Origin: Schmidtea polychroa
Lineage: Eukaryota
DNA length: 43,183 bases
Direction of reading: 5' to 3'
NCBI GenBank assembly: GCA_044892525.1
Contig: CM097886.1
Span: 147,270,818 to 147,314,000, forward strand
Shown: positions 13,045-37,089 of the stretch, one piece after another
Position numbering within the stretch: the first letter of the stretch is position 1
How the letters are laid out: every line of letters starts with the position of its first letter
Notes under the pieces: generated by a model
What the model was told of the DNA's origin: nothing
The model's input: only the letters and a program-made list of their open reading frames with translations
Database searches by the model: none
Made by a program: the position numbers and the translations under genes

Positions 13045-15150
13045 CTAAGTGAATTTCAGCATCAGATGTGCCAAGTTTTCATTAGAATAGACTCTGGCAA
13101 GTCTTGTAGGTTTGGAAGTGTCTTCACCAATTTGGCGCACCCAAATCTTATCGCTATGTTTCACATTTTTCTCTGTAGTTGCGATTTCATTTGAGTTCGT
13201 AACAGGTTCTACTGAAAGGTTTTCGTTCGACGTAGTTGAAATGGGTTCGACTGAAACTTTCTCTAAATCAGAGTGAAGTTTGTCTTCATCCACGTCATCA
13301 GAAATCATGAAAGCCGTTTTAAGTCCTCACAAATTTATATTTTGGATAACACCGTTGATAACGATGTGGCATTGTTATCCTTAATGTCGATCAATTTGTA
13401 AGGCCCCGAATATCTCGGTTTGAGACCTGAATCCGTAATATTACGAAGATAAACGTGAGTTGCGTCCTTGAAGGACTTTGGGACATACGGTGTATATGAG
13501 GAAGCATAAGAAAACTGTGGGTTGCTATCGATCGAAAGAAAATGATCTCTAGCCATATCTAATTCCTCAAAGGTAGGAGCGTTATCGAAATCAACTAATT
13601 CGTTAGGCAATGATGTTGAAGAAGTAACTGTGTCGGTGTAGTTCCGGTAGTCCTGGAAGGTGTGTTACTCCAACAAAGAAGAACAAAAGGTAAAGCTGTA
13701 GTCCAATTAAGTCTCGATGAAAGTATTCCAAGAGAAGTCTTCAAAGTTCGGTGAAATCTTTCGATCATGCCGTTTGTCTGAGGATGGTAAGCAGTTGAAC
13801 GTAGGTGTTGCATACCGAGCTTTTCAATTAGATGTTGAAATAACTGGGATTCAAACTGAGTTCCCCTGTCTGTGATTATTGATTTCGGAACACCGTATCT
13901 AGAAATCCAATGTTGCAAAATTGAATTTGCTACAATTTCAGCAGAAATGCTTTTTAAAGGAATAACCTCAAACCAACGCCTTTTCCGGTCAATCATGGTT
14001 AATAAGTAAGAAAAATCGCGATCAAAAGGCAAAGGACCGACCAGGTTGATGTGAAGAATTTCGAACCTATTTTCGGTCGGATAGTGAATCATCTGTGGCT
14101 TAGTGTGTCTAGAGATCTTGTGTTGTTGACAACCGATGCACTGGCTCACCCACAATTTAATATCGTGCCTCATTGCTGGCCAAACCACACGTGAATGTAA
14201 TAGATTGAAGGTAGCCGACGAGCCTGGATGATGTAAGTCGTGAATGGAGTGGAAAGCTAATTTCCGTAAGGAATTGTGCAAAATCGGTCTTAAAACACCT
14301 GATAAAGACGAGTCAAAGTGTACTCCGTCCACAATTTCAAGCTTATCGCCAAAAGCAGCTAGATCTTTTGCCGAAGGTGGATTGTCGCGGAGGCACTGTA
14401 CTGGAAATATTGTATCGTGCAATATAGCGTTGGTACTGCGGGAAAGACAGTCCGCAATAACGTTTTCTTTGCCGGCAATGTGGCGTATTTCGCAAGAAAA
14501 TTCAGTGATATTACTGATTTGCCTCTGTTGTCGTGGAGATGGGTCTTTCATTCCAAAAAGATAAGTTAGCGGTTTGTGGTCAGTGTAGATGATGTAGTGC
14601 TTGAAATGTTTGATTGAAAGATATATGCCTAAGAGTTCTCGGTCGAAAGCGGAATATTTCCGTTGTGCAAAAGAAAGTTTCTTTGAGAAAAACTCTAAGG
14701 GTTCGGAAAGGTCATTATGTAATTGGTGTAATACTGCACCAATAGCAACGTTTGATGCATTAGTAGTCAAACTCCAAGGTAAATCAGCATTGGGAAAATG
14801 AAGTGTTTAAATTTTCGAAAGTGCCGACTTAGCGTTTTCAAATGCACTCAGTGTGGTATCGCTCCATGATACTAGAGACTTTTTTGGTTTTGAGACAAGA
14901 CCTGATAGAGGTGACAAAATGTCAGAAACCCCTGGAATAAAACGATGACAATAGTTTATCGTTCCCAAAAAACTTCTCAGTTGTGAAACTGTTTTTGGAA
15001 GTGGGAATTTGGCTATAGTATCTAGTCTATCCGGGGGAAGTCGGATTCCATCTGCGGAAATTAAATGTAGAATTAAATGTAAAAGAAGGTACACTTATCG
15101 ACATTTACCTTAAGGTTGTTTTGTCGAAGTGCTGTTAAAGTGCTGTTAAA
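13045..15150 (-). mobile_element. Ty3/Gypsy pol remnant: end of RT, RNase H, integrase with GPY/F tail; frameshifted and 5' truncated
   Basis: RT thumb LRSFLGTINYCHRFIP; RNase H TTNASNVAIGAVL..YSAFDRELL..YTDHKPL; integrase HHCC (HDLHHPG...CIGCQQHK), HINLVGPLP, ITDRGTQFES, NGMIERFHRTLK; RYSGPY. First catalytic Asp of RNase H and integrase appear as Asn. Confidence 0.93.
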
Positions 15151-15934
15151 GTAAATAAAAATGAGACAGAAGCAAGAAGTATCACATGAAATTAACACAA
15201 CAGCAGTAAGTTAATTTGAATTAAGTGACGATGGGAAGGGATAGGAGTGGAAATCAGAAAGAGTTCCACGAAAAATTTCAAAAAATAATTAAAAAAATTA
15301 TAGTCGAAAAACTGGAAAATTCAGTAAAATGGCGAAAGTGATGATACAAAGTTAACAAAAAAATCAACATTCAATAATTAAAAATAACAAAAAGTAAAAA
15401 GAAATAACCTAAGAATTTAAAGAAAATAAGAATTAGGCACAAAAATCGACGAAAAGAACAGAAAATAGTCTAAAATGTTCAATTCCACCATGGCGGCAAA
15501 TTTAATTAAAAATAAATAAAATATGAAAATCAGAAAATAAAATTAATTATTATTCACAAAAAATCGCCATTAAAATTGATAAAAATAGAAATTCGAAATT
15601 AAGTAGAATAAAAATAATTCAAATTATTTTTACTAAATTTCCAATGCACGCAAAATCAGTCACAAAAACTAACTTGTGCAATTTATGCCAATTTCCTAGC
15701 AGATTATTACCGAGATAATAAGGAATTTTATTTGTTTTTATAATCTTGTTAGTGCAAGGTCGATTTAAGAATTATTGATTAGGGTTAAAGGGTAGATATT
15801 AATAATTTATGAATGTAGTAATAAATATATTCATTCGTTGCACACTTAGTTATGTTCAGTAAAAAGTACTGGGAAAGCCAGAGACAAAGTCTAATTAAGA
15901 TTTAATACTAGGGAAGGGAAACTAAACAGAAGTG

Positions 15935-15990
15935 GGACACAGACCTCCTATCGGCAGTGCGCGAACCCGCTTGAGTACCTGTCGATTATA
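15935..15990 (+). repeat. Dispersed repeat shared with 21200-21255 (LTR-like)
   Basis: CTATCGGCAGT(G/C)CG(C/T)G(A/G)ACCCG..TGAGT(A/G)C(C/T)TG(T/A)C(G/A)ATTATAA present at both sites. Confidence 0.65.
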
Positions 15991-17223
15991 ATATACAAAG
16001 ATATGCTCACTTTTCGCTAGTACCCCTCAATGCAGTTCCAACGTTGATCACCCAACGGGTATGGAACGGTACAGCATTCTTGTATTCTGGATTACGCTGG
16101 AAACATCAAAAAAGGGACAAATGTGGTCTACCTGTATTATTATCGTATTTTCACTCGCAAACGGGTATCACCCACATCCTAGTATAATCCGCGAATTTTA
16201 ACCAAACCAGTAAAAAAGAATTGATATACGATAAGTTGAATTTGGGATAGTTTTTTAAGAAACCACAATAACCGTTGAAGTGAGAACACCGAATTCAGTA
16301 GACAGAGTTCCGCAAGATGAACCGACGAGAGACGAACAATTTCTGCTTAGATGTTGCTCGGAAAGCAATCATTTCTTCGAAAAGAGATGACGCTAGAAGA
16401 AATAAGAAAACGAAATTTGTTCATAGAATACTTCACGTCCGATTATAGAAGAATGATCCTACTATCAATTGCAATTATAAATTAAGACGTGAAAGTAGTG
16501 AAATATATCTATTTGACACCAAGGATGAGGATCCAGCATTATGTCTCTTTCCGTTTGGGATCAATTGAAGACCAATAAGCTGAGATGCGTGAAATCCATA
16601 AGCTCGTTGTGGGGAAGATATTAGTAGGGCAAGATTTGCATGCCGAATTACAATATTTGAAAATGTGGATAGGGAAGCTATATGGTATAAGAGACTTGGT
16701 GGCAACACCAATCTTCAAAAAAACTTAAAGTAACAAAAAAAGTGCAATGGTTTAAACTCCAAACGCTGATGAATGAAATATGTGGAGAAACAACACAAAC
16801 GGGATTTCATTCGGTCAAATAAGATGCGAAAAGCATTTAACGGATTTATAAAGAATTAGAAAATCAATGGGAAGATTACATAGTATGGCTGGTCAAAGGT
16901 ATTGCAAAAAAATGTCCATTAGCAGGATATAAATTAAAAAATCAAGCAACTACAAGTGAAATAGAATATGAGGACGATACATCAATGCAAATTGAGATAG
17001 CAATACAGTACCAAATGGAGATAGAATCCTCAAAATACATAATAGAAAAGAGCTTGGCGATATTGTTACCAGCAGAGAGCAGAATTAAAAGTGGAGCCAG
17101 AATTATTTCCGCTAATCAATTTCAATAATTACCAAATATATTAAATGTTGATATCTATATATCTGTTGAGGATACCTAAATAACAATTTATAAATAAATA
17201 AATAAAATTAGCTGGGGCAAGAT

Positions 17224-20597: not shown

Positions 20598-21283
20598 ATA
20601 ACAATCGATTAAGTCGGATCAACAATAAATTGATAAATTGATAACACCCGATAAATTCGTGTTATATTATGACTATTTGTAGGATTTTAAACATTTCAGA
20701 TTAACTTCCTGACTTGACACATCACCGTGGTCTCTGTTCTTGGTGGACGACAATTACTTCCATTTTTTATAACTTGATTCTTTTTCCCACGAGTAATTTG
20801 GACCTGCACTTTCGGCCAATACATATTTTTCTCTTCATATGTCTTGTGTATTCGTGGATTTGAACCAAATTGCATATCATTCTCTATAACGTCATTTCAG
20901 CCTTTCTAGCTACTTCTGAAGGTTATCTTTCATTTCCTTACAGTACGTTTCGACACATATTGTCCACGTCCAATCGTTCATATATTGATAATCCCAAAGA
21001 ACCTTAAATATGAACATGTTTCCTGGTACTATTATTAATCAATTTGGACCGACTTCATCCTCGTTTAACCTTCCTCTACCGAAAATCTAGAATACTAGAA
21101 ATTGTGCGATATGTCTATAAGTAACTGATGAGTATGAGATGTTGAGTGAATATAGCAAAGTTGGGAAAACAATCTAGTGACAGGGACCAGTATAAATCGG
21201 ACATAGGCCTTCTATCGGCAGTCCGTGGACCCGATGAGTGCTTGACAATTATAACGCAAGTAGTGGTGAATTATTATTTTATG

Positions 21284-21580
21284 TCGCATCTGTGTGCGTT
21301 TTCTGTTTGCATTTGACATTGGTTTTGTATGCGCACACAGACGCGAGCACTATGATTTAAAGGGATTATTGTTCAATTTTTGAATTATCAGTTTATGTCT
21401 CGCGCCTGTGTACGCTTTTTACTTTGACATTGGATTAATTTGTGTGCACACACAGACGCGGACAATTGTCGGGTTGTATCGAAGTTTTTCGATTTTCTGG
21501 AATGTGGTAGAATTTCTGATTTGTTTAAATTTGTTTTTAAAAGATTTAGTTTGTTCCAGAAGAGTTTGAAAATAAATTTT
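21284..21580 (+). mobile_element. TIR remnant related to the 32093-33779 element (two tandem CGCGTCTGTG...CACAGACGCG stem-loop units)
   Basis: Motif pairs at 21284/21332-21346 and 21399/21450-21460 match the subterminal stem-loop at 32162-32220 and 33655-33707; followed by a similar TTCTGGAAT(T)GTGG tract. Confidence 0.7.
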
Positions 21581-21590
21581 TGTGAATTTA

Positions 21591-21971
21591 ATGGCTTCGA
21601 TTAATACAGATAATTACTATGATAATAAATGCAACAGGGACGTTCACACATCTCAGGATGGTAAATGTGTGACGTGCAATGATGGATTTATTGAAAGAAG
21701 TGAATCTGATAACTCAATGGAAAATGATGATGATGCCTTGAATGTTTTTCATATTATTCGTCATATTCCTGGTGGAAGTACTACAAACGAAACTGATGGT
21801 TCCTTTTTTATTACTTCAAGAAATCCTGATAATAGAAATGGTGTTTTTGGCCAACTATTATCAAATTTATTTGGTGGATTGCTGCCGCTGGATTTTAGGT
21901 CAGATTACATATTTTCAGATCAAAGTTTCGACAATTTTGTAACGAGTATTATGAATCAATTTGAACAATGA
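21591..21971 (+). pseudogene. RNF115/RNF126-like E3 ligase N-terminal fragment (zinc ribbon to linker; RING absent)
   Basis: YYDNKCNRDV...KCVTCNDGFIE matches the N-terminal zinc ribbon (first Cys replaced by Asp). SDYIFSDQSFDNFVTSIMNQFE matches GDYAW..GLDAIITQLLNQFE, and the ORF stops there. Confidence 0.7.
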
Positions 21972-23129
21972 TTAAAATATAATTATTAAACGAAGATTAC
22001 CTATTAATTTTATTTGGAAACCACAAAATTCCAATGTAATACTTATTAGTTGTTTCTACATTTCTCATTTCCTCTTGTCGGAATCAAGTACTCTAAAATT
22101 TGCGATACAGGAGCTTTCGACACTCACTTTTCAGTGAAAAATTTCGTACATTATGAATTAACCAGGATGTATTGCGAAATCATAAAAGAATTTGTTTAAA
22201 TCATTAGATTTCATCTCTTTGACTATGACGATTAACAGACGAAAATTCTCAATCATTATTACTTTAATATCCACATATACCTATTGAATTTCTCACAGTG
22301 GCCCAAACTAAGACAAAGATCGTAGCAACTTCTACGGATACGCTTATTTCTTTCTATTTGACCAATTATCGGACGTTCAAAACTTATTGAAATTTTCGAG
22401 TTTAACGGGTGACTAAAATGTTTGTCCCATTTGGTACTCTTCGGCGTTTATCGGCCCTTTCTAATATTCATTATGGTGTTTACGGAGTCGAAAAGTTGAA
22501 ATGGCGACTGGACGGAAAATGTTGGTGCGGGTTACATCTAGGGGTATCGAGACAAGAGTTGCTAATGTGAATCCGGTCGAATCACGTACGGACATTTGAA
22601 AACCACCACATAACTTTCAAAACGACAGAGCACCATGATGATCATGTTGGTAATGTGCTAAGTTGGTGAAAACAACATAGTAGAGTAGTGAGCGCCTGTG
22701 TTAGGACTACTAGAAATTTATTTAGTCATTATACTAGTGACCAAAGCAGAGATTCATAATTTTTTATACTTCATTCCTTCTCTAAAAGTGAATTTATTGT
22801 TACCAGCTCACACGTAATCAAAGTAAGGACAAATCAAACGAACAGTCTATTTTGTTCAAAGTGAACAGCTGTGGGACGAATTTTTCGCGTGTTCACAATA
22901 AAAAAATGTGAACAATATTTATCTTAATCCAATAGATTTGATTATAATAGCAAATATTTAATAAAACATAAAAATTTTTATTTATTAGACTGATTTTGAA
23001 AATAATTTGTAATCTCTGGACTTCTAGAACGTGTTTCATTCACAATCTCATTTATGATAACTGTTATAGTTTGAGTAATATTCTAAGTTGATTATTATCT
23101 TTTTATTAATGATTTGTGTTTGGAAGATT

Positions 23130-23191
23130 TGTAGAGCCCAGCCGAGTCTCCTGTAAAAATGGTCTCGGGACAGCTGGGATGAATGTATGTA
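23130..23191 (+). repeat. Left arm of an inverted repeat pair with 27792-27851
   Basis: 51 of 62 aligned columns identical to the reverse complement of 27792-27851; begins TGTAGAG. Confidence 0.75.
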
Positions 23192-23729
23192 GAGTTGCGA
23201 CAACTATATATGTAATAAACAAATAACAATAACAGTTACATAGATTTACACTTTTTATTCAAAGATAATAAAATAGAAAAAATGTTGTTGAAGATAGACA
23301 GAGGTCCAGAATATTTTAGATCTCTTTGACTTCAATTTTCTTTTGTCTCAAAGTTTGTTCTTCTGACAATATTTGGTATCACCTTGGTTTATATTTTCTT
23401 TTATTTTTAGGAATATTCTTTGATAATAATTTGGATCTCTTTGGTTTATAATTTGAATCGTTTTGGTGATATTGATTTTGTTATTTTTCAATTTTTTTAA
23501 AATTTTCAATTCTGTATAGTAAATTATTATAGAGAATTGCTATATAGATCCTTTTGTTCGATCACGGGGCCGTTACTCGAATTGAGTTAAAAAGTGTAAT
23601 TTGTAATTACATTAAAAAAAATTATGCATAAAACATTAACATTACATTACAATCACCAATATTAATGATAGTTTTACAAGAACAAACTCTAGAAAAAAAG
23701 GATTTAGTGCTTGTTTGTTTTCATTTGAT

Positions 23730-24417
23730 TTCACGTCTTCATTTGAATTATAGCAATTTTCAATGCCTTTTTAAAAGAATTTACGATCGTTTCTTTAGTT
23801 ATATTTTCCCAAGCTCTTGCTGTCCAAAGAATTGCATTATAAAGCTAATTTTTTGTAAACATTTTTCAAAATTGATTTCAGTATCTTCTTCCATCCTTGA
23901 TTTTACATCAGAGGGTAAAAAGATTTTTATTTATCTTTAACAATTTTAATGATACCTTGATCAAAAGGCTGTATCTTTGAGGTAGTATTTGAAGGAAAAA
24001 AAGCAGTTAAACATTTGAAAACTCGTAATCCTTGGGGTGTACAGGGGCATTATTCACTATTAATATCTTTCTGTTCTCTTTTTTCATTGGCGAATTTATT
24101 TCTTCTAACCAATCACAAAATATTGTAGAATTCATCCAGCTTTTATTATTTGCCTCATACTGATAGTTTGAGTGTAATTTTCCTTTAAAACATCCAGGAT
24201 TTTCTGATTTCCCAGTTAGCAGTGGCCTAGATTTTCCTCCAGTTTTACTTACTTCAAACAATATTTTCATTCTTTGGAAAATTTGCCATTAGCATTTTCT
24301 GAATTCGAAAATTAAATATCACAATTAAATAAATTTTCATCCTTATATTGAGACAATTTGTCTTTTAAAATATTTTTAAAATTAAATTTGCTTCTTCATT
24401 TATTCTTTTAGATCTTA
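23730..24417 (-). pseudogene. pogo/Tigger transposase, DDE_1 half
   Basis: KLSQYKDENLFNCD; GKSENPGCFKG..YEANNKSWMNSTIFCDWL..RKILIVNNAPVHP; FPSNTTSKIQPFDQGII; stops and frameshifts present. Confidence 0.85.
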
Positions 24418-25569
24418 TCACATCTTGACTTTCTTTCAATCAATTTTGACATTTTTTCAATCAATTTTAACAAATACATTCAGCCCATATTACAGATGAT
24501 GATAGAAGAAGGATTATCGAGTCATATATCGATGGAAATAGCGTAGTTACGATTGCAAGAATTATGATGTTCAAAAGGACAACGGTTCATTTTATTATCA
24601 AAAAATATAACGAGTCTGGACAAATCACTAGGAGTCAAAAAGGTGGTGTACACCGGCAATCTCTTTCTGAATCTCAAAAAAGAGAAGTGATTGATTGGAT
24701 TGATGACAATTGCGCTATCACATTGAATGAAATCAAGAAAAAATGCGTTAATTATATGAATGGGGGGTCAGTTTACCTACATTATCGAGGTATATAAGAT
24801 CATTTTCATATACATTCAAAAGAATCCATAATATTCCTGAGAGAATAAATAATGCTTCTAAACTTGATATGACACCTGTATAATCCAACTCTTTCATGGA
24901 GATGCTTTCCACGACAGATGATAATAACATCATCTTTATTGATGAAGTGGTTTTCAATTTTTCTATGAGAATCAAAGGAGGAAGATCTTTGGTTGGTACA
25001 CGACCAATCCAAGTTGTTTCGAGCATCAGATCTAGAAATGTATCTTTATGTTGTGCTATGAATATGCATGGAATTATTAGTTACAATGCTCAAACAAGAG
25101 CTTATAATTCTGATAGTTTGGGGAATTTATCAGATTCCTGATATCCGAGTTGCAAAGCAGAAACATTCAATCTGCAGTTTTCATCATGGATTATGTTACT
25201 TTTCATAAAACTGAAGCAACAAATAGTATTATTTCATAAAGTGGATGTAGTATATTATTTTTACTACCATACTCGCCATTTCTCAACGTGATTGAGAATA
25301 TGTTTTCAAAGTGAAAACAATTGATTAGAGCTCAAAGTTAACAATGAGCCCGAATTAATAGCTGCTATTGAAAATATGTCTTTCAAGATTGTATTGGCTA
25401 TTACAGACATTTTTTTGAATTTATCTCAAAATGTTTGAGAAAAGAGGAGATTTTTGATGAATAAAAATTAAGTTTTTGCTTACATATTTATTAATTTTAA
25501 ATATAATATAGTACAATTTTCATAGTAATAATATTTGTTAAAATTGATTGAAAGAATGTCAAAATGTGA
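24418..25569 (+). mobile_element. Tc1/IS630-like (DDE_3) element nested in the pogo transposase; transposase disrupted
   Basis: TIRs TCACAT(C/T)TTGAC(T/A)TTCTTTCAATCAATTTT at both ends, TA at the left flank (TG at the right). HTH region RRRIIESY..TVHFIIKKYNESG, IFIDE, RSRNVSLCCAMN, FIMDYVTFHK, LPYSPFLNVIENMFSKWK. Confidence 0.85.
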
Positions 25570-25920
25570 TGATAACCCCTGTATGTTATTTCGTCTTAGA
25601 AATGAAGATAACCACCCATTTGATGCCTTGAAATCTGATACGGCTAATTTCTCAGCAATTTCAAGGGCTTTAGTTATCATTATTTTAGAAGATATTGTCA
25701 TTTTTCTACTTCTCGATTCTTGAAACCACCTACATAAAATGGGATCAATATCCCTCATTCTTCCTAATTTTTACATTTCTAATCTTGTTATCATTTTTGT
25801 TGATCTCACATATTCTGAGTCTAAATTTAAAAGCTTGTTAATCAACCCTACAGAAATTGAATATTTATTTGCTAAAAAATCGTTTATTTTTAACTTCATC
25901 ATGCATTGGCATTGCTAGAT
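25570..25920 (-). pseudogene. pogo/Tigger transposase, CENP-B-type HTH half
   Basis: IDPILCRWFQESRSRKMTISSKIMITKALEIAEKL..FKASNGWLSSFLRRNNI is a typical CENP-B/Tc5 HTH. Confidence 0.85.
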
Positions 25921-26010
25921 TCTTAGGATTCTTTTTTCATGATATATGAGTCTATTTTATTTGTTTTACGCTACAATTTAAATGCACACTATTTTAATGT
26001 ATTTGCACAC

Positions 26011-26190
26011 TAAATGCTAACTATAAATAATAAATGCTAACTATAAATAATAAATGCTAACTATAAATAATAAATGCTAACTATAAATAATAAATGCTAA
26101 CTATAAATAATAAATGCAAACTATAATAAATAAAAGCTAACTATAATAACTAATTGCTAACTATAAATAGTAATGCTAACTATAAATAAA
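26011..26190. repeat. 20-bp minisatellite TAAATGCTAACTATAAATAA, 5 perfect plus 4 degenerate units
   Basis: Direct reading of the sequence. Confidence 0.95.
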
Positions 26191-26670
26191 TTATTTTCTA
26201 ACTTGGTTGATTGGATTGAAAGGTGGTCCAACAATTACGAATCTGGAATTAAAGTCATCAAAACCGAACCAGAAATTGACTTGGAACTTTGGACTAGCTC
26301 ATACCAGTGGGCAAAGTTGAAGAAAACCATTTTTCCAGAATCAACAGAGAGTGGTGTTGTTTACAAAATTGCTGCAAAAGATTTGACAGAAACCTACGAT
26401 GGAATTGACAACTGGGAAACGTTTGATGAGTTTAAAATTAATGCATTTCTTTCATGGACTACTATTTTACCAAAAGATCAAAATGACTGGATTAACGGAG
26501 ACTGTAACTGCCCTTCTTTTTTTAAAAAAATGCTTTGCAAACACATTGTTGGATTAGCTATTCGACTAAAGCTTGTAGCCCCTCCAACCGAAGCGAAAAA
26601 TGTTCCAATTGGAACCAAAAGAAAGAGAGGTCGCCCTGCAAAAGCAAGAAAAGCATTGCTGTTGCAGTAG
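26173..26670 (+). pseudogene. MULE-type transposase C-terminal part with SWIM zinc finger and AT-hook-like basic tail
   Basis: DCNCPSFFKKMLCKHIVGL (CxC-x8-CxH SWIM) and KRKRGRPAKA; the ATG comes from the last minisatellite unit. Confidence 0.75.
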
Positions 26671-27437
26671 AACTAAAAATTTATTATATCTAGTGCAAAT
26701 AAAATGCAGCCATCATACAAAACATTTTGTTAAACCATTTTTTAAATGTCTATAAATTGTTGTATTTAAGCATTCACAATAAATTGTAATCTCTATGCTT
26801 TTTTATTCATTGAAATATATCTGAAATTTTTATTTTATAATGTATAAATATTTTTGAAAATAGTGTGCAAATATTTATTTTTTAGTTTGCAGAACATAGT
26901 TAGCAAATATCGATTTTATAGTGTGCAAAAATCATTTTTTTAGTTTGCAAAATATAGTTAGCAAATAAGTATTTAATAGTGTGCAAAAATCATTTTTTTA
27001 GTTTTCAAAAAATAGTTAGCAAAAATCAATTTTATAGTGTGCAAAAATTATTTTTTAGTTTGCAAAAATAGTTAGCAAATGTTAATTTTTTAGTGTGCAA
27101 AATGGGATTATTTAGTTTGCATTTAATTAGGCGCCTTTGTTTTATATGATTAAATGATTATTATAATCAATAAAAAATTTAAATTGGAAAATTTCATATT
27201 CACTGTAATGTATCATATTTTTTATTTATTTTTAAATTGTAATTAGTATTCGTCGTATACGGTGATTTTTATCACCAAGTATGTGAAAATAAATAATAAA
27301 ACTATATAGTGTAAATTATTACTATAGTAAATTACAAATTTAAAAAACAAAAAAATCGATAAAAATTTATCTAAGGAAGAAAAAAATTTATCTAAGACAA
27401 CAAAAATTAAAACTATAACTGATCAGAAGGAAAACAT

Positions 27438-27663
27438 AGAACAATTATTATCTACTTATAATCTAGATCTTACAAGTTCAAAGAATATATATCATTTAAC
27501 AGAAATTGAATTTGGACATTCCACTATTCCGTTCATTCTTAGAAGAACAATTATTATCTACATATTATCTGCATCTTTACAAGTTCAAAGAACATATATC
27601 ATTTAATAGAAACTGATTCTGGTCATTCCACTAAACCGTTCATTTATAGAAGGATAATTATTA
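27438..27663. repeat. Diverged tandem duplication, period about 106 bp
   Basis: AGAACAATTATTATCTAC...TTACAAGTTCAAAGAA(T/C)ATATATCATTTAA at 27438 and 27544. Confidence 0.85.
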
Positions 27664-27716
27664 ATGGTAATTTAGACAATTGGTCGATAAAGTTTATGTT
27701 GTTTTTTGTTGATAAA

Positions 27717-27764
<48 letters not shown>

Positions 27765-27791
27765 AATGTAGTCGCAAATTAATTATTAATT

Positions 27792-27851
27792 TACATACAT
27801 CCACCCCGGCTGTCCCGATACTTTTTACTGGAGACTTTGCCGGGCTCTATA
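27792..27851 (-). repeat. Right arm of the inverted repeat pair with 23130-23191
   Basis: Reverse complement TATAGAGCCCGGCAAAGTCTCCAGTAAAAAGTATCGGGACAGCCGGGG... Confidence 0.75.
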
Positions 27852-27966
27852 AACTCTCTCATAACTACACAAAAACCTACAACATAATTCGAGAATTCAT
27901 TTAATCTACGATATTTAAGAACCTATAATATTCACGCTACAAAGTTTAACTTTTTATGAACACATG

Positions 27967-28193
27967 AGTAGTGTGTTTATTGAGCAAACGGAGCCAGACA
28001 CCCTAGCTGAAAATAATTTATAATTTCTACACATCAACATTTTCATAATTACAAATTTGGTAATTTTATAAATTTATACACTTCAACAGCCAAATACCCC
28101 AAGCTCCCCATACATCACAAATAAGGTGTACAAATTTGTACCATGTAAAATTAAATATGCATTGAATTGCGTTTGCTCAATAAACACACTACT
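27967..28193. mobile_element. 227-bp miniature element with perfect 24-bp TIRs starting AGTAGT
   Basis: AGTAGTGTGTTTATTGAGCAAACG at 27967-27990 and its exact reverse complement at 28170-28193; no TSD seen. Confidence 0.75.
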
Positions 28194-28409
28194 ATATAAA
28201 TATGCAAAAATGCAAATTATAAAATTTGAGAAATAGGGTTTAGCCAAAATATAGAATTTTAATATAATTTGGATATGGGTTTTAAGAAATGGTATAAATG
28301 TTTGAAATATTTGAAAATATGAAAAAAATGAAAATATGAGGAAAATGAAAAAATAGAAATTTCATGCTGTGAAAAAAAATACTTAAAAAATACTTAATTC
28401 CAAAAAAAT

Positions 28410-29105
28410 ATGACTACTCCAAATGGATACATTTGTGTACCTTGTGAAAAAACATTTCAAACTTTACCAGCATTAAAATCTCATAAAACATGTAATAAAA
28501 ACCAATTCTTTAAATAATGAAAATTCAAAAACGTGTGATAAATGTGGAAGTATATTTTTACTATCTGGCTATACTTCGCATCATGACACTTTTAGAATTG
28601 CAAGAGAACAAGAGCTTGAGAAAATCAACAAAATAAAACAAGCTGATGAGCGAGAGTAACAACAACTGCTAGGATTAGATGTAGTTCGAATGATTGAACA
28701 AGTTGGTTCTCCTCGTTCTTCATCAGTAGGAGTCAAGGATTATATTCTTTTTCACAAAGATGAAATTATAGCAACAATGAACAAGGCTCTTGAAAAATTG
28801 AGACATGTTAAATTCCGAATAGATATATTCATGACTTATAATCGAGTACAAACAATAATTTTTTAAACATTTCCATTAGAAGCAAATTCTTCCATTTATT
28901 TGGAAAACCAAGTGATTTATAAAAATTTATAAAGATTTAGATCAAGAAGCTGATTCAAAATCAGATTATATTGAAGGTAGTGACATGGTTCTAGTTTCTT
29001 TTGAATATATTCAAATTCATTATTGGAAAGCAACTCCTTTTCAACCAAAATCTTGGATTCCAACTCCTAAAGCTATTACAAGTAAATAGATCATCAATCT
29101 AAATA
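28410..29105 (+). pseudogene. Polinton/Maverick pPolB-associated N-terminal region with zinc-finger-like motifs, degraded
   Basis: CVPCEKTF..ALKSH and CDKCGSIF..YTSH. EGSDMVLVSFEYIQIHYWKATP..KSWIPTPKAITSK*IINL resembles the Polinton GSGW.L..I..L.I.I.KY.PL..SSYI.LP..I..KKAIIN motif. Confidence 0.55.
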
Positions 29106-29107
29106 CA

Positions 29108-29776
29108 TTGAATCTAAAGAGCTCTAAAAATAAATCTGAGGTATTTGCGATAATTCCAGTACAAAGAGAGAGATCAATAACCCCAACCCAAGACAAGTGG
29201 GAATCAGGAAATAGATTTAAGCGATCGAAAAGCCCATCACCCAAATGGAGGAACGATAATAATGTGAACAGAGCAAGCCAAAATTCACCAAGCACTGAGA
29301 GATCTAAAGCTATTCAATGTGATATTTGTAAGAAAATTGGTCATTATACAAACCAGTGTTGGTTTAAAAATAATTCTGAAAGAGTACCTAGGAGATTGAG
29401 TCCAGATTGGCAGAGAGATGATAGAGGAACAAATTTTCGGAGAACAATTCCTAATATGAAGTCAAATTTCAATGAGGTACAATGCTATCGCTGTAGTAGA
29501 AAAGGACATGTTTCTAGAAATTGTTTTTCAAGATCACCATCAACGTCACCATCACCACAGAGAGACAATGTGAATTTAAATGGGAAAATTCAATGTCATT
29601 TGTGCAGAAATTACGGGCATATTGCAAGATCCTGTCCCAGAAATTCTAACAAATTTCAAAGACCAATTTTGAAACGAACAATTAGATTTCAGGATGAAAA
29701 ACAATCAAACAATAACGTTGCTTATGTTCAGAAGATAAATTTAGAGAGAAAATTGAGAACGATGTTAATCAATTGA
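29108..29776 (+). pseudogene. Gag nucleocapsid-like region with three CCHC zinc knuckles
   Basis: CDICKKIGHYTNQC, CYRCSRKGHVSRNC, CHLCRNYGHIARSC separated by SP/R-rich linkers. Confidence 0.85.
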
Positions 29777-30159
29777 ATCAAAAATTGAATGAATTGATAG
29801 CAAAATTTGAATCAGAAGAAGAAACAGATGCTCATATTATGACGAGACGAAAATTGACAGATGAATCAAAACTTGATGATGTTGCTAGAAACATAGTTAA
29901 AACTGATATGCAAAGTGAAAAGAGTACAATACTTATTACTAAGGACAGAAAATTAGTAATAGAACCTGACGCAAACTCTCAGAAATTGACAGAAGTGTTA
30001 ATGAAGCTAACGATAATACTGTTGAGTTTAACAAAAATCAAAACTGTTATTAAACTTTGTATGGAATGTTATGCAGCAAGTGTGGGAAAGCGAGATCTAT
30101 TTGAAAATTATATGATAGAATTTGGCCAAACTCTACTAAAAATTAAATGGTTAGACCCA

Positions 30160-31438: not shown

Positions 31439-32349
31439 TTGCTCAGATATGGAAAAACAAGAGGAAATAATTAAAACGGCAAGCAGAGTTTTACATAAAC
31501 ATGTGGGCACATGGATAAAAAGAGAATGGAGGTTGGGAGAAGCTGAGTAAACAAAAAATTGAACCAGTTGTAAAAATGAGCGAAAACTATGATGGGGCAT
31601 TAAAAAGAAAACCCGTAAAATTACCGTTTTTAATGTTTATGATCTTAATATTTTATGCAATTTCCAACTAAAACCTCTTCGTTAATTGCATATGATTGCA
31701 CTCAAACAAAGATTGGAGAAATTTATTCGATAATGTATTAAAGAATTAGCAATTAGCGACAAAATTAAAGACAATTCAAAAAATGTATAATTTCATACAT
31801 GTTAATCTTTGGACAAAATAGTGGAGAAATGTTGTCATAATCGAACCGATGATGAAGAAATTTATATGTATTGGACAGTCAAAGAACAGCAGAAAATTAA
31901 AATAATTTTCCAAAAAACCATGTAATTGAGATATTGAGTAAAGGAAAATTTTTTGTCAAAAATGGGAATCTACAGAAACCTCTTCATGGTTATGAAACCT
32001 GTACGAACAATGAATGGTCAAAATTAGAATCTCAAGATGAAACAAAATACCTTAATAACAAAACAAATCACGTTCAAATGCAGATTTGTAGTTGTTTCGA
32101 CCAGTCAGAGGGGGAATGTCACTCACCTCTGACTGGCAGTTTGTTGGATGCTTCTTTTGTTTCGCGTCTGTGTGCGCGGTCTGATTTGTTCGAATATTGT
32201 TGGTGTGCGCACAGACGCGAGAAGTAGGTTTGATTTTCGTTGTTTCTGGTGAAATTTTAGAATTATTGTTTTTTTGTAGAAACTATATTTAATTTTGTGG
32301 TTTTGTTTTACTGGTAAATTTTCGAATTCTGGAATTGTGGATTTTTTAA

Positions 32350-33393
<1,044 letters not shown>

Positions 33394-34593
33394 TAAAATT
33401 ACTATTTAGCAATTTGATGGAGGATGATCAGATGTTAAAGGTCAACTATCATAGAAGATGCCAAAGGTCAATTAATTATTGCCAACGTCCGGTTTCAAAT
33501 AACAGATTATTATAATTCCAAAGAATTCCAGAACGATTCCAGAAATTTCCGACAATTCAAACAATTCTACCCAGATAAACAAATTCACAAAATCAATATA
33601 GTTTCTACAAATAATTTCATAAATTCATAAAAGACAACGAAATCAAACCCATTGCTCGCGTCTGTGTGTGCACACCCATTTACCATAATTCGGCACACAG
33701 ACGCGAGAATATTCAACCAACAGACTAATCAACAGCCAGTCAGAGGTGAGTGACATTCCCCCTCTGACTGGTCGAAACAGTAGTAATGAAATAACTGTAT
33801 TTTACAAGACAAAGGTCGGAAAAAGGGTAAATGTTTTTATAAATGATAAAATTCAGGTAGTGTTGGACGAACATCGTCAACAAGCAAAAGGTAGCCTTCA
33901 AAATTCAAAACCGAAAGCAACATCAAATGAATTTATGACGAGAATTATGCATTGCAAGCGAAAAACCAACGCTGACCGGTGGCATATCGTGTTCATCGAA
34001 AATAGACATATTAATCTTCATAATAATAAATTCTTTGAGAAAATAACTATTAATCAAAAATTGAAGTTATTATTGACATTCTTATGTATAAAAAACAACA
34101 GTCTATCATTACACTATAAAGAGAATCTATTTATTAGCAATTGTGTTAAAATATCGTTCAGATTTGTAATTATGGCCATTCCAAGTGACATTCTACTCTT
34201 TGACATTGTGATCAATATAGCCATTGAAAAGGAGAACAATCATATATGACTTTCAGTATTCGGATCCGCGGAGATCAATGTGGTTAGAGACATGGGTGTA
34301 GTAAGATATGATTTCATTGCATGATATTGATATTGTAGAGTATTTCTTTATATTATATCTTTTATGATTATGCTCAAAATGACTAATAATAATCTTGTTA
34401 TGTGACTAATCGTGTTATCCTTTCTGTGAATAAACGGGTTGAGCGGTTACATTGCTGATGGGGAAATTGGGATATAAAAGTATGGTTGTTTTCAGATGAT
34501 TTAACAAAATTTTAACAGAAGATAACTAGAAAAGGAAATTCAAATGGGAAAAATCTAAAATTTCATTACTAGTTAAAATTCCATCTTCTAGAG

Positions 34594-37089
34594 CATAGGT
34601 TCCCAACCTGTGGTACGCGTACCACTAGTGGTACGAATTGATAATTTTGGTGGTACGCCAAGAGTTTTGTACTTTTAAAAAACTTATATTTTATGCTAAG
34701 ATAACAAAAAAATTAATCAAGCTATAAATTCGTATATTCTTCTGATAGAACGATACCCAACATATTCAGAAAAATATGCGTAGTTAAAAGAAAAATATTT
34801 TTAGTACTAACACGTTCGAACAAATCCAGAAATATACTATTAGGTTTAGTTTTTATTTTAATTTACAAAGCAAGCTGGGGTGTGATAAATTTGTATCCAT
34901 CTTATTAAGAAATAGTCCATAAGTAAATTATTATTTTTTAGATTTTTCAAAAAGAAAAAAATATTTCTATCAGGATTCGAACCAGCCCCCGAAGTTAAGG
35001 TCTTACCAAATTTTTTTACCCATTGATAATGAAAAATTTTGCCGATAACAATGAAAATTTAAGTTCATATAGCGAAGAAGAGGAAATCTTTGAAAAGACA
35101 AATTGTGTGCAGAAAAAAAAGCATAAAAAGAAAGAGAAAGTAGCCAGGCTCTATAATCCAGAATACTTAAGCTATGTATTTTCAATTAAATCTGGCTCAG
35201 AGTCTTCCGATTCCGCAGTGTGTTATCTGTTTCGAAACTTTATCAAATGGATGCATGAAACCATCACTTTTAAAAAGACATTTCTCAACTAAGCATCCGG
35301 AACTAAAAGATAGGCCTTCGGAATATTTTCAAAGGAGGGTTGCGGAACTGGGCCTTCAAAAAGCTTTTATGACATCTTTCAGCAATTTAAACACAAATTA
35401 TGTTCGGGCTTCATATTTAGCGAGCTTACATATAGCAAAATGTGGAAAGGCACATACAATTGGTGAAACTTTATTGCTGCCTGTTGCTAAAGATATCGTA
35501 AGATCAGTATTTGGCGAAAATTCAGCGAAGGAAATCGAAAAAATCTCATTGTCGAACAACACGGTAAAGTCACGAATAGACGATATGGCAAATCAGATAG
35601 AAAAAATTTTAGTCTGCAGATTAAAAGACTGTTGGTTTTTTTCTTTGTAGCTTGACGAAAGTACCGACGTTTCAAATTTGGCTCAATTACTTGTCTATGT
35701 TCGATTTGATTTTATGAACGAAATACACGAAGAAATGCTTTTTTGTAAACCTTTGAAAATGAGAACAACATCTAATGAAATTTTTAACATACTTACTGGT
35801 TACTTTGCTGAAAATGAAATAGACTGGAATAAATGTGTAGGGATTTGCACAGATGGTGCTCGAGCCATGATTGGAAGCTTATCTGGGGTAGTTACAAGAA
35901 TTAAAGAAGTTGCTCCGTTATGTATTTCTATGCATTGTATAATTCATCGTGCATCTTTGGCGGCAAAAAATATGCCCGATCCCTTGATAACAGTTCTAAA
36001 CGAAGCCGTAAAAACGATAAATTTCATAAAGTCTCGAGCACTTAATTCCCGATTATTTTCAATTCTATGCAGTGAGATGGGAAGTGACCATACCACGCTG
36101 TTGCTGCATACTGAAGTCCGGTGGCTTTCAAGAGGAAAAGTTTTAAGTCGACTATTTGAATTGCGAAATGAGGTAAAAATCTTTCTTAAAACTTCCCAAG
36201 AGCGAAACGATATTAATTTTACAAATGAAATTTGGTTGTCTAGGCTTGCATACTTATCAGATATTTTTGCTAGGCTGAATGAATTAAATTTAAGCTTACA
36301 AGGCGCAAACAATTCGGTGTTTGATCTCAGCGACAAGATATTAGCATTTAAGAGAAAATTAAGATTAATATTGCAACAGATTGAAAAAGGAGATATTTCA
36401 ATACTTTTTTCTTTAAGCGCCTTTGTTGATGAAAACAAAATTTCTGTTTCTGAGCAAGTATTGGCCGATATTAATCAACATATCATATCCATGTTACAAT
36501 CCTTTGAAAAGTATTTCCCGGAAAACGTTATTTCTCAAAATTGGATTCGAAATCCCTTCGCATTCCAATTTGATATCCCAGATAATGTTAATGATAAGGA
36601 ATCTTTTATTGATCTAATTAGCGATGGCAATTTAAAAATTAAATTCAATAACTCTAATTTGTGCTCATTTTGGCTTTCCATTCGTAAAGAATATCCTGAA
36701 TTATCAAGTCAAGCTATTAAATTTTTAATGACATTTAGTACTACGTATTTGTGTGAAACTGGATTTTCAACCATGTCAGCGATAAAAAATAAATACAGAT
36801 CATTGCTTAGTATAGAATCTGATCTTCGTCTCAAATTGTCGAAAATTTCACCAGATATTTCCATGTTAGTTAGGAATAAACAAGCTCAACCATCTCACTA
36901 AATAAAATAAAAATATTATGAGCAAAAAATTTTTTGTTTTTTTGTTTGATTTTTTTTCTTAACCACAAAAGAAATTTTTTATATATAAAATGCTACATTT
37001 AAAATAAGCCCCCCAAATTTTTTACGTGGTACTCAAAAATTATTTTTATTTTTAGTGGTACGAAACCCAAAAAAGGTTGGGAACCGCTG
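34594..37089 (+). mobile_element. Full-length hAT (Buster/Charlie-type) transposon
   Basis: TIRs CATAGGTTCCCAACCT / AGGTTGGGAACCGCTG, perfect 8-bp TSD TTCTAGAG (34586-34593, 37090-37097) with central TA, GTGGTAC subterminal repeats. Confidence 0.95.
35023..36901 (+). pseudogene. Buster-type hAT transposase (ZBED5/ZBED8/SCAND3-like) with a frameshift and one premature stop
   Basis: RLYNPEYLSY, PQCVICFETLSNGCMKPSLLKRHF..KH, FSL*LDESTD (TAG 35648-35650), CTDGARAM, HCIIHR, HTEVRWLSRG, FSTTYLCETGFS, QAQPSH. Confidence 0.93.

Follow-up and report, generated by a model that had tools for sequence, protein, structure and literature searches.

The feature at 21264-21967 of the window, the whole 43,183-nt stretch of Schmidtea polychroa DNA analyzed here, is most probably (probability roughly 0.8) a 3'-truncated solo long terminal repeat (LTR) of a BEL/Pao retrotransposon holding a piece of spliced host mRNA for an RNF115/126-like protein, likely captured by template switching of reverse transcriptase and likely serving as a disposable in-frame leader of a ubiquitin-Gag fusion. 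The window copy is a dead, truncated remnant, and it represents an unusual BEL/Pao clade with coding, exchangeable LTRs. What we add here is the RNF126 lineage of this clade, its parent gene, and its capture junction. The window copy and its surroundings comprise the following features.

21161-21253 (no strand assigned): unrelated repeat, the insertion target of the LTR; its continuation is absent on the right, and a second copy lies at 15925-16108
21259-21263 (+): left target-site 5-mer AGTAG, read from the sequence; its right-end partner is absent
21264-21967 (+): solo LTR of the RNF126-type BEL/Pao lineage, lacking the last ~180 bp; 91.6% to positions 1-721 of a 901-bp LTR flanked by target-site duplications (TSDs) in L032, with the ends taken from relatives
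21285-21345 (+): inverted repeat 1, one mismatch in the 5' arm; from the sequence and a genome pattern count
21401-21460 (+): inverted repeat 2, a tandem duplicate unit, one mismatch in the 5' arm; from the sequence
21461-21590 (+): G+T-rich, C-poor leader (8 C in 130 nt)
21571-21576 (+): AATAAA inside this leader, a putative poly(A) signal
21591-21967 (+): spliced RNF115/126-like cargo comprising host exons 1-5 and 46 nt from the start of exon 6, with 9 nt deleted; from the exon map and a 91.2% match to host CDS positions 1-386
21968-22420 (no strand assigned): right flank, outside the element; 1 match of 1 candidate in the genome

The 3' arms of both inverted repeats (CACAGACGCG) are exact at 21336 and 21451, and the two hairpins match those of an element at 32093 at 70% over 121 nt (E = 5.5e-6). 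The tandem stem-loops described in an earlier note on this DNA were thus found, as were its downstream GTGG tract (TTCTGGAAT at 21495) and its ATG at a similar position in the two elements (at 21591; the last arm lies 131 nt before it, versus 140 nt in the PSMA6-type element). The intronless RNF115/126-like N-terminus that the note proposed corresponds to a frame of 126 aa at 21591-21971, whose stop codon (21969-21971) is supplied by the flank; its match to the zinc ribbon family Zn_ribbon_19 in Pfam is weak (E = 0.01, below the cut-off). An AATAAA lies at most 43 nt upstream of the cargo ATG in 38 of 40 distinct RNF-type leaders.

The genome (781 Mb, AT-rich, and intron-bearing) was searched with the DNA of the window element, giving 1527 candidates of which 40 were scored, and with the cargo protein, giving 1152 candidates of which 150 were scored, with 163 matches; over 1,000 candidate copies of the RNF126-like cargo are present. 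Ends of relatives were read in 50 loci fetched from both searches. RNF-type LTRs natively start with TGGT(G/T)AATTAT (21264 in the window), and the LTR-like repeat that was thought to have replaced the outer terminus of the element is its insertion target. Most relatives extend ~180 bp past the window copy, via SGPPPANE...CQH...WLIK and most of the RING, and end with TTAAACA; cargo stopping before the RING is therefore a property of the window copy and not of its family. Among 25 distinct RNF-type loci with both ends, an exact 5-bp TSD was found in 17 and one with a single mismatch in 1, a few calls in ATT runs being possibly false; in 2 loci a primer site comes next, and 5 have neither, one of these carrying an exact 6-bp duplication. 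The two RNF-type LTRs with a primer site are followed by TGGTAGCAGAG; this primer site is complementary over 18 nt to a genome-encoded tRNA-Met at its 3' end, CCA included. A polypurine tract lies 5' of the LTR in L042 and L043, preceded in L042 by a DUF5641 integrase tail (E = 7e-20). The TG...CA ends, 5-bp TSDs, primer site, and polypurine tract indicate that the hairpin units are LTRs. The same anatomy, with its fixed ends, led us to reject Penelope-like or LINE-driven insertion as well as a hammerhead ribozyme at the ends, all three of which had been considered by eye.

Two-LTR elements were found in L187 (RNF type, LTRs 94.6% alike, with RVT_1 and Peptidase_A17 between them), L192 (98.6% alike), and L196 (other cargo, 96.4% alike, TSD ACTAA), and a direct LTR pair is also present in L096. 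The PSMA6-type L081 contains Gag (DUF1759), reverse transcriptase (RT), Peptidase_A17/RNase H, and integrase with DUF5641 in BEL/Pao order, with broken frames, and parts of the BEL/Pao gene set are contained in the RNF-type L187, L186, L192, and L103. By LTR anatomy and by internal gene set and order, the carrier is a BEL/Pao LTR retrotransposon. Many two-LTR copies are only about 3-6 kb long and thus internally deleted. Exact junctions of an RNF-type LTR with the primer site number only 7 in the genome, so most copies are probably solo LTRs. Recombination between LTRs would leave such solo copies, and a later deletion would then have taken the right end of the window copy.

The variety of cargo behind one motif had been read in the earlier note as repeated capture by a family of Pack-type DNA transposons, with genes caught between hairpin-bearing terminal inverted repeats (TIRs). 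The window does contain a unit, 32093-33779, with 49-bp inverted ends and a 5-bp duplication, as this reading would predict. However, an inverted partner within 10 kb was found for 0 of 17 related left ends; direct LTR pairs, the primer site, the polypurine tract, and BEL/Pao genes were found instead; the cargo is spliced; and the inner right TIR proposed at 22020-22045 is a chance 13-bp match (E = 0.43) in DNA with a single match in the genome. We consider a TIR transposon family very improbable. Capture behind one motif holds in the sense that a single mobile family carries varied host cargo with the same hairpin, but the carrier is the BEL/Pao retrotransposon and the motif is the 5' part of its LTR. 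The 32093-33779 unit, which had been taken for a TIR pair around PSMA6, consists of the following parts.

32093-32921 (+): sister LTR, PSMA6-type, TG...CA, with proteasome-alpha cargo from the ATG at 32359; from the sequence and domain search
32922-32939 (+): primer-binding site, 18 nt complementary to the tRNA-Met 3' end; from the genome tRNA match
33079-33303 (+): ubiquitin ending LRGG, in one unbroken frame with the LTR cargo (32359-33396), a second ubiquitin starting after it; from frames and domain search
33468-33779 (-): 5' part of an LTR from a different subfamily, in inverted orientation, which had looked like a right TIR; matches the LTR starts of Rab-type L087, L091, and L093 at 78% over 312 bp

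GTAGT is present at both outer ends of this unit (32088-32092 and 33780-33784). The unit, two LTR 5' ends of different subfamilies in opposite orientation, probably arose as an aberrant cDNA that the integrase accepted. An internal inversion was also seen in L093. Between the primer site and the ubiquitin of the sister element, a 79-nt GT...AG stretch (32962-33040) resembles an intron by its sequence; its removal would change the frame.

At the 3' side of the window copy, the sequence AACAAGTAG, sought as the right-end partner of the 5-mer AGTAG, is absent throughout 21000-30000 of the window. The continuation of the target repeat is present in L103, L109, and L110 and in the window matches only at 15925-16108. 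We read the loss of the right LTR end, the right TSD, and the rest of the target repeat as a later deletion, although the junction 21967/21968 may be an assembly join instead. The repeat of 21161-21253 adjoins RNF-type LTRs at four loci (the window, L034, L042, and L051) and is possibly a favored target or merely abundant.

A search for the parental locus located a single host gene elsewhere in the genome. The pattern of the RING tail, the part that the LTRs lack, has one genome match, and it lies in this gene (G000:C1 near 218.2 Mb), which has 220 codons in 7 exons, an intact N-terminal zinc ribbon, and a complete RING-H2. Its six GT-AG introns measure 42, 49, 112, 45, 3086, and 52 nt. We take the name RNF115/126 from the domain architecture; PDB matches do not single it out. 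In 57 distinct cargo copies (median identity 93%), 51, 52, 57, 57, and 57 align across exon junctions 1-5. All five parent introns spanned by the cargo are missing, indicating that the cargo came through spliced RNA. The cargo also retains ~25 nt of host sequence 5' of the ATG.

The earlier note had named two observations that would overturn it, a genuine spliced RNF115/126 locus with RING exons downstream and a hairpin that is a common housekeeping-promoter element. The frame at 21591 is indeed open for 126 codons from its ATG, as a gene would require. But the intron-bearing gene lies on another contig, no RING sequence follows in the window, and no hairpin arm, with one mismatch allowed, occurs in 30 kb around the host gene. 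That the window holds the genuine gene behind a housekeeping promoter thus has next to no chance of being correct, and a copy of spliced host mRNA inside an LTR accounts for the frame.

The 3' junction of the cargo points to the way of capture. The two sides of the spliced host exon 6/7 junction read TAATAAAA and CATGGTAC, and the LTR and primer site read TAATTAAACA and TGGTAGC. At this junction, where the LTR ends, the spliced mRNA has TAATAAAACATGGTAC and the LTR with its primer site has TAATTAAACATGGTAGC, a match of 10 nt that exists only after splicing. That the spliced junction mimics the LTR end and primer site (AAACATGGTA) points to template switching by reverse transcriptase. Soon after tRNA-Met priming, the nascent minus strand would jump to a co-packaged host mRNA at AAACATGGTA, copy it to ~25 nt before the ATG, and jump back, which would place the cargo in the U5 side of the LTR. 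The capture might instead have begun by direct mispriming, with tRNA-Met annealed to the host mRNA and no prior switch from the element RNA, and the end of the LTR does coincide exactly with the CA that precedes TGGTA in the spliced mRNA. However, just 5 nt of the 18-nt primer site match, which makes mispriming the weaker explanation. In addition, at a position where the host reads ATA the LTR reads ATT in 42 of 42 copies, and the clade has unrelated LTR ends that likewise finish with TAAACA, so the last bases of the LTR look inherited from an older LTR end. We therefore judge mispriming distinctly unlikely and favor the template switch.

Other LTRs with the same hairpin carry pieces of proteasome-alpha, Rab, DUSP, EAP30, LIM, cofilin, and WD40 genes, often as in-frame mosaics. 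The cargo sample comprised the first 35 of ~45 distinct hairpin loci listed, in position order from the start of C1, with 9 added later. A Pfam search with 26 LTR frames assigned 10 to proteasome subunits, 2 to DSPc, 2 to cofilin (one weak), 2 to WD40-like, 1 to EAP30, and 1 to Ras (weak), whereas 9 had no family and 1 gave a noise match; the LIM and Rab pieces come from loci outside these 26. The DUSP cassette has 181 candidates, with open frames of up to 1395 codons. In the mosaic of L118, RNF and PSMA6 pieces are joined in frame at a shared 9-mer, so that microsimilarity at switch points amounts to 10 nt at the 3' junction and 9 nt at the RNF/PSMA6 junction, both raw lengths of single junctions. 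The PSMA6 parent gene was not found among the 14 + 6 loci from the family search nor by pattern, and no DUSP parent gene is among the matches listed. With the RNF parent as the only one located, the other cargo would by analogy be of spliced origin. In L037, L192, and L218, one motif of the RNF cargo has been multiplied by short tandem duplications that keep the frame, with up to ~5 copies in L218.

The cargo frames are in phase with what follows the LTR. Of 33 places that resemble a primer site, 29 have their longest upstream open frame in the phase that reads the site as His-Gly-Ser (medians 66, 9, and 1 codons), and one of the four misses is probably no real site. In 14 of 15 LTRs with callable ends, drawn from 35 position-ordered loci whose other 20 are duplicates or have uncalled ends, the longest frame reaches the terminal CA in the His-Gly-Ser phase; neither of these counts is a set of independent events, because copies share LTR ends (about ten distinct ends). 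In the PSMA6 lineage, the leader after the primer site is followed by two ubiquitins ending LRGG and LAGG and then by DUF1759 Gag. RNF-lineage elements have one diverged ubiquitin, ending RLCGG, 5' of DUF1759 Gag. Unbroken read-through is seen in single copies, namely at 32359-33396 of the window, in L084 (PSMA6-Ub-Ub-Gag, 591 aa), and in L257 (DUSP-DEAD-Ub-Ub). For the RNF type, no unbroken frame from the LTR ATG to Gag was found among the 7 exact junction loci or 17 longer loci, and the frame was seen only in pieces (open for 191 codons 5' of the primer site in L268 and for 190 after it in L265). One reading phase thus runs from the LTR cargo through the primer site and ubiquitin into Gag, unbroken in single PSMA6- and DUSP-type copies and in pieces in the RNF type.

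Other counts weigh against so simple a picture. Primer site and ubiquitin are separated by a multiple of three nt in only 18 of 30 cases. Among 34 copies read from the RNF ATG to the terminal CA, 18 keep the phase and 11 are open. Indels common to at least two copies are a multiple of three in only 1 of 5, and shared stops show no significant depletion (p = 0.21). In L257, L259, and L260, the stretch between primer site and ubiquitins contains an in-frame DEAD-box fragment, whose position past the primer site indicates that capture also happens in the internal leader.

A captured leader ATG would block Gag translation unless it were in frame, so only in-frame captures would be expected to spread. 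Host enzymes cut at the ubiquitin inserted in the cytopathic pestivirus protein. Here, cleavage after Gly-Gly by deubiquitinases of the host would release Gag from a leader of any kind. We offer this ubiquitin-GG spacer as a concrete reason why capture into the LTR is tolerated.

The RNF cargo itself lacks the last CxxC and has lost zinc ligands (C11Y in 47 of 50 copies, C155G in 49 of 54, and H178P in 26 of 42). Of six near-fixed replacements, two abolish zinc-binding cysteines, and the RING is incomplete; in the window copy there is no RING, and no RING sequence lies downstream in the window. With zinc-binding cysteines lost and the RING cut short, the cargo cannot be a working ligase. Relative to the host gene, dN/dS was 0.87 for private changes, 1.0-1.4 for changes in 2-4 copies, and about 0.40 for changes common to at least 5 copies (17 N, 11 S; p = 0.067 versus private), and near-fixed host/cargo differences comprise 6 N and 10 S, unpolarized. 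The value of ~0.40 weakly hints that the cargo is not fully neutral.

Such a value would also be expected if the cargo peptides had a function that preserves them, such as shielding Gag or the element RNA by serving as ubiquitin-proteasome decoys. The lean of the cargo toward ubiquitin-proteasome genes fits this (proteasome alpha in 10 of 26 LTR frames, RNF126-like in >1,000 candidates, and EAP30 once). However, capture is more frequent for highly expressed genes whatever their function, the p value is only 0.067 and changes in 2-4 copies give 1.0-1.4, and zinc ligands are lost, domains cut, and mosaics freely variable. We regard functional peptides as unlikely; the cargo is likely a passenger leader that host deubiquitinases would cut off.

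The exact hairpin pattern has 2849 genome matches, compared with 0 for a reversed control, and is therefore far above chance. Most RNF-type LTRs have one or two hairpin units, with nearly invariant arms and spacing that clusters at 37-42 nt. Over ten outer pairs in 185 hairpins, we counted 1 compensatory change and 22 G-U versus 34 A-C, with no preference for G-U. The window copy folds with a z of -2.9, and its arms pair across the two units. The lack of covariation or G-U bias gives no support for a selected RNA structure, with little power given the invariant arms. As to the role of the hairpin, our guess is a paired promoter site in the DNA, which accords slightly better with these data than a stem in RNA would.

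We compared this arrangement with known systems as described in the cited portions of the sources. BEL/Pao families have been reported in a planarian (PMC3118150) and share the TG...CA LTRs, 5-bp TSD, primer site, polypurine tract, DUF1759 Gag, RT, Peptidase_A17, and DUF5641 tail, whereas here the LTRs contain host mRNA frames and ubiquitin precedes Gag; the word "ubiquitin" has 0 occurrences in the main text of that report. LTR-mediated retroposition (Tan et al., 2016; PMC5131818) likewise yields incomplete copies of spliced host mRNAs, chimeras of several genes, short similarities where templates switch, and repeated copying rounds, and the loss of parent introns that marks retrocopies is seen here for one parent gene (junctions 1-5 crossed by 51-57 of 57 copies). 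The retrocopies of that study are internal and replace retrotransposon ORFs, whereas here the cargo is inside the LTR, between TG and CA and before the primer site, in both LTRs, in phase with Gag, and survives in solo LTRs in hundreds to thousands. Cassandra, Helenus, and Ajax TRIMs (PMC10886601, PMC10853983) also have host-derived LTR sequence, a primer site, a polypurine tract, and a 4-5 bp TSD, but theirs are non-coding tRNA or 5S rRNA pieces acting as Pol III promoters, in contrast to protein-coding mRNA pieces that vary between subfamilies. ARAGORN found no tRNA in the window.

Cytopathic pestiviruses (PMC2850149) resemble the present elements in having captured cellular ubiquitin directly before an element protein, but they are RNA viruses without LTRs, their insertions are sporadic, and no exchangeable cargo lies upstream. 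The Burro giant Gypsy elements of planarians (PMC6431247) are LTR retrotransposons with captured host domains linked to ubiquitination; they are of the Gypsy type and >30 kb, and their domains lie in the polyprotein or accessory ORFs and not in the LTR. Pack-MULEs and animal Pack-TIRs (PMC8277862) also carry host gene fragments but are DNA transposons with paired TIRs, which these elements lack; no DDE transposase bounded by the ends of the family was seen in the fetched loci. The order LTR cargo, ubiquitin, and Gag was not found in the literature searched, a scope that lies outside Repbase, subscription journals, and supplements, and it is not described in the LTR and retrotransposon passages of PMC11410931.

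LTRs are usually treated as non-coding control regions. To our knowledge, known gene capture by LTR elements is internal. We see about an even chance that in this BEL/Pao clade the LTR has become a translated cassette of interchangeable host genes, in which the ubiquitin cut site frees Gag from any leader, reverse transcription writes mosaics of host mRNA into U5, and solo LTRs scatter thousands of promoter and chimeric-ORF units. Such a clade would carry its own engine of exon shuffling, with products that may also affect the ubiquitin-proteasome system of the host. Coding cargo in an LTR is amplified twice per element and persists as solo LTRs, leading to the >1,000 candidate copies of one host gene fragment. 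In this genome, such copies will make gene families look larger than they are and will confound both the mapping of reads and the design of RNAi. Because the RNF126 junction links a capture to the very start of reverse transcription, the mechanism can be tested on dozens of cargo genes.

A protein database search with the RNF cargo gave 0 matches and one with Gag gave two unnamed relatives, with PF03564 only, both of which say little about other species. Parts of a relative are covered by contigs of three sequencing runs, presumably of RNA, a signal to which the host gene can add. The tRNA-Met gene that is the primer of the family, which presumably shows initiator features, has 1226 matches genome-wide, and the copies listed from 79.33 Mb of G000:C1 (L232-L237) form a tandem array with a 454-bp period. 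Many family LTRs are inserted in ATT microsatellites. Four tandem ~27-kb units at 174.92-175.01 Mb of G000:C2 (L004-L007, L013-L017) each contain a two-LTR PSMA6-type element. Frames that by eye are Polinton/Maverick- or adintovirus-like (ATPase, integrase, polymerase B, and capsid) lie at most 10 kb from many family members (L084, L085, L088, L089, L092, L093, L097, L099, L102, and L229). The window also holds other mobile DNA, with approximate boundaries: a hAT-type transposase (34590-36901), a Tc1-like element with inverted ends (24417-25570), a SWIM-domain frame (26167-26670), a CCHC Gag-like frame (29090-29776), and a Gypsy-like RNase H-integrase frame (13595-14806).
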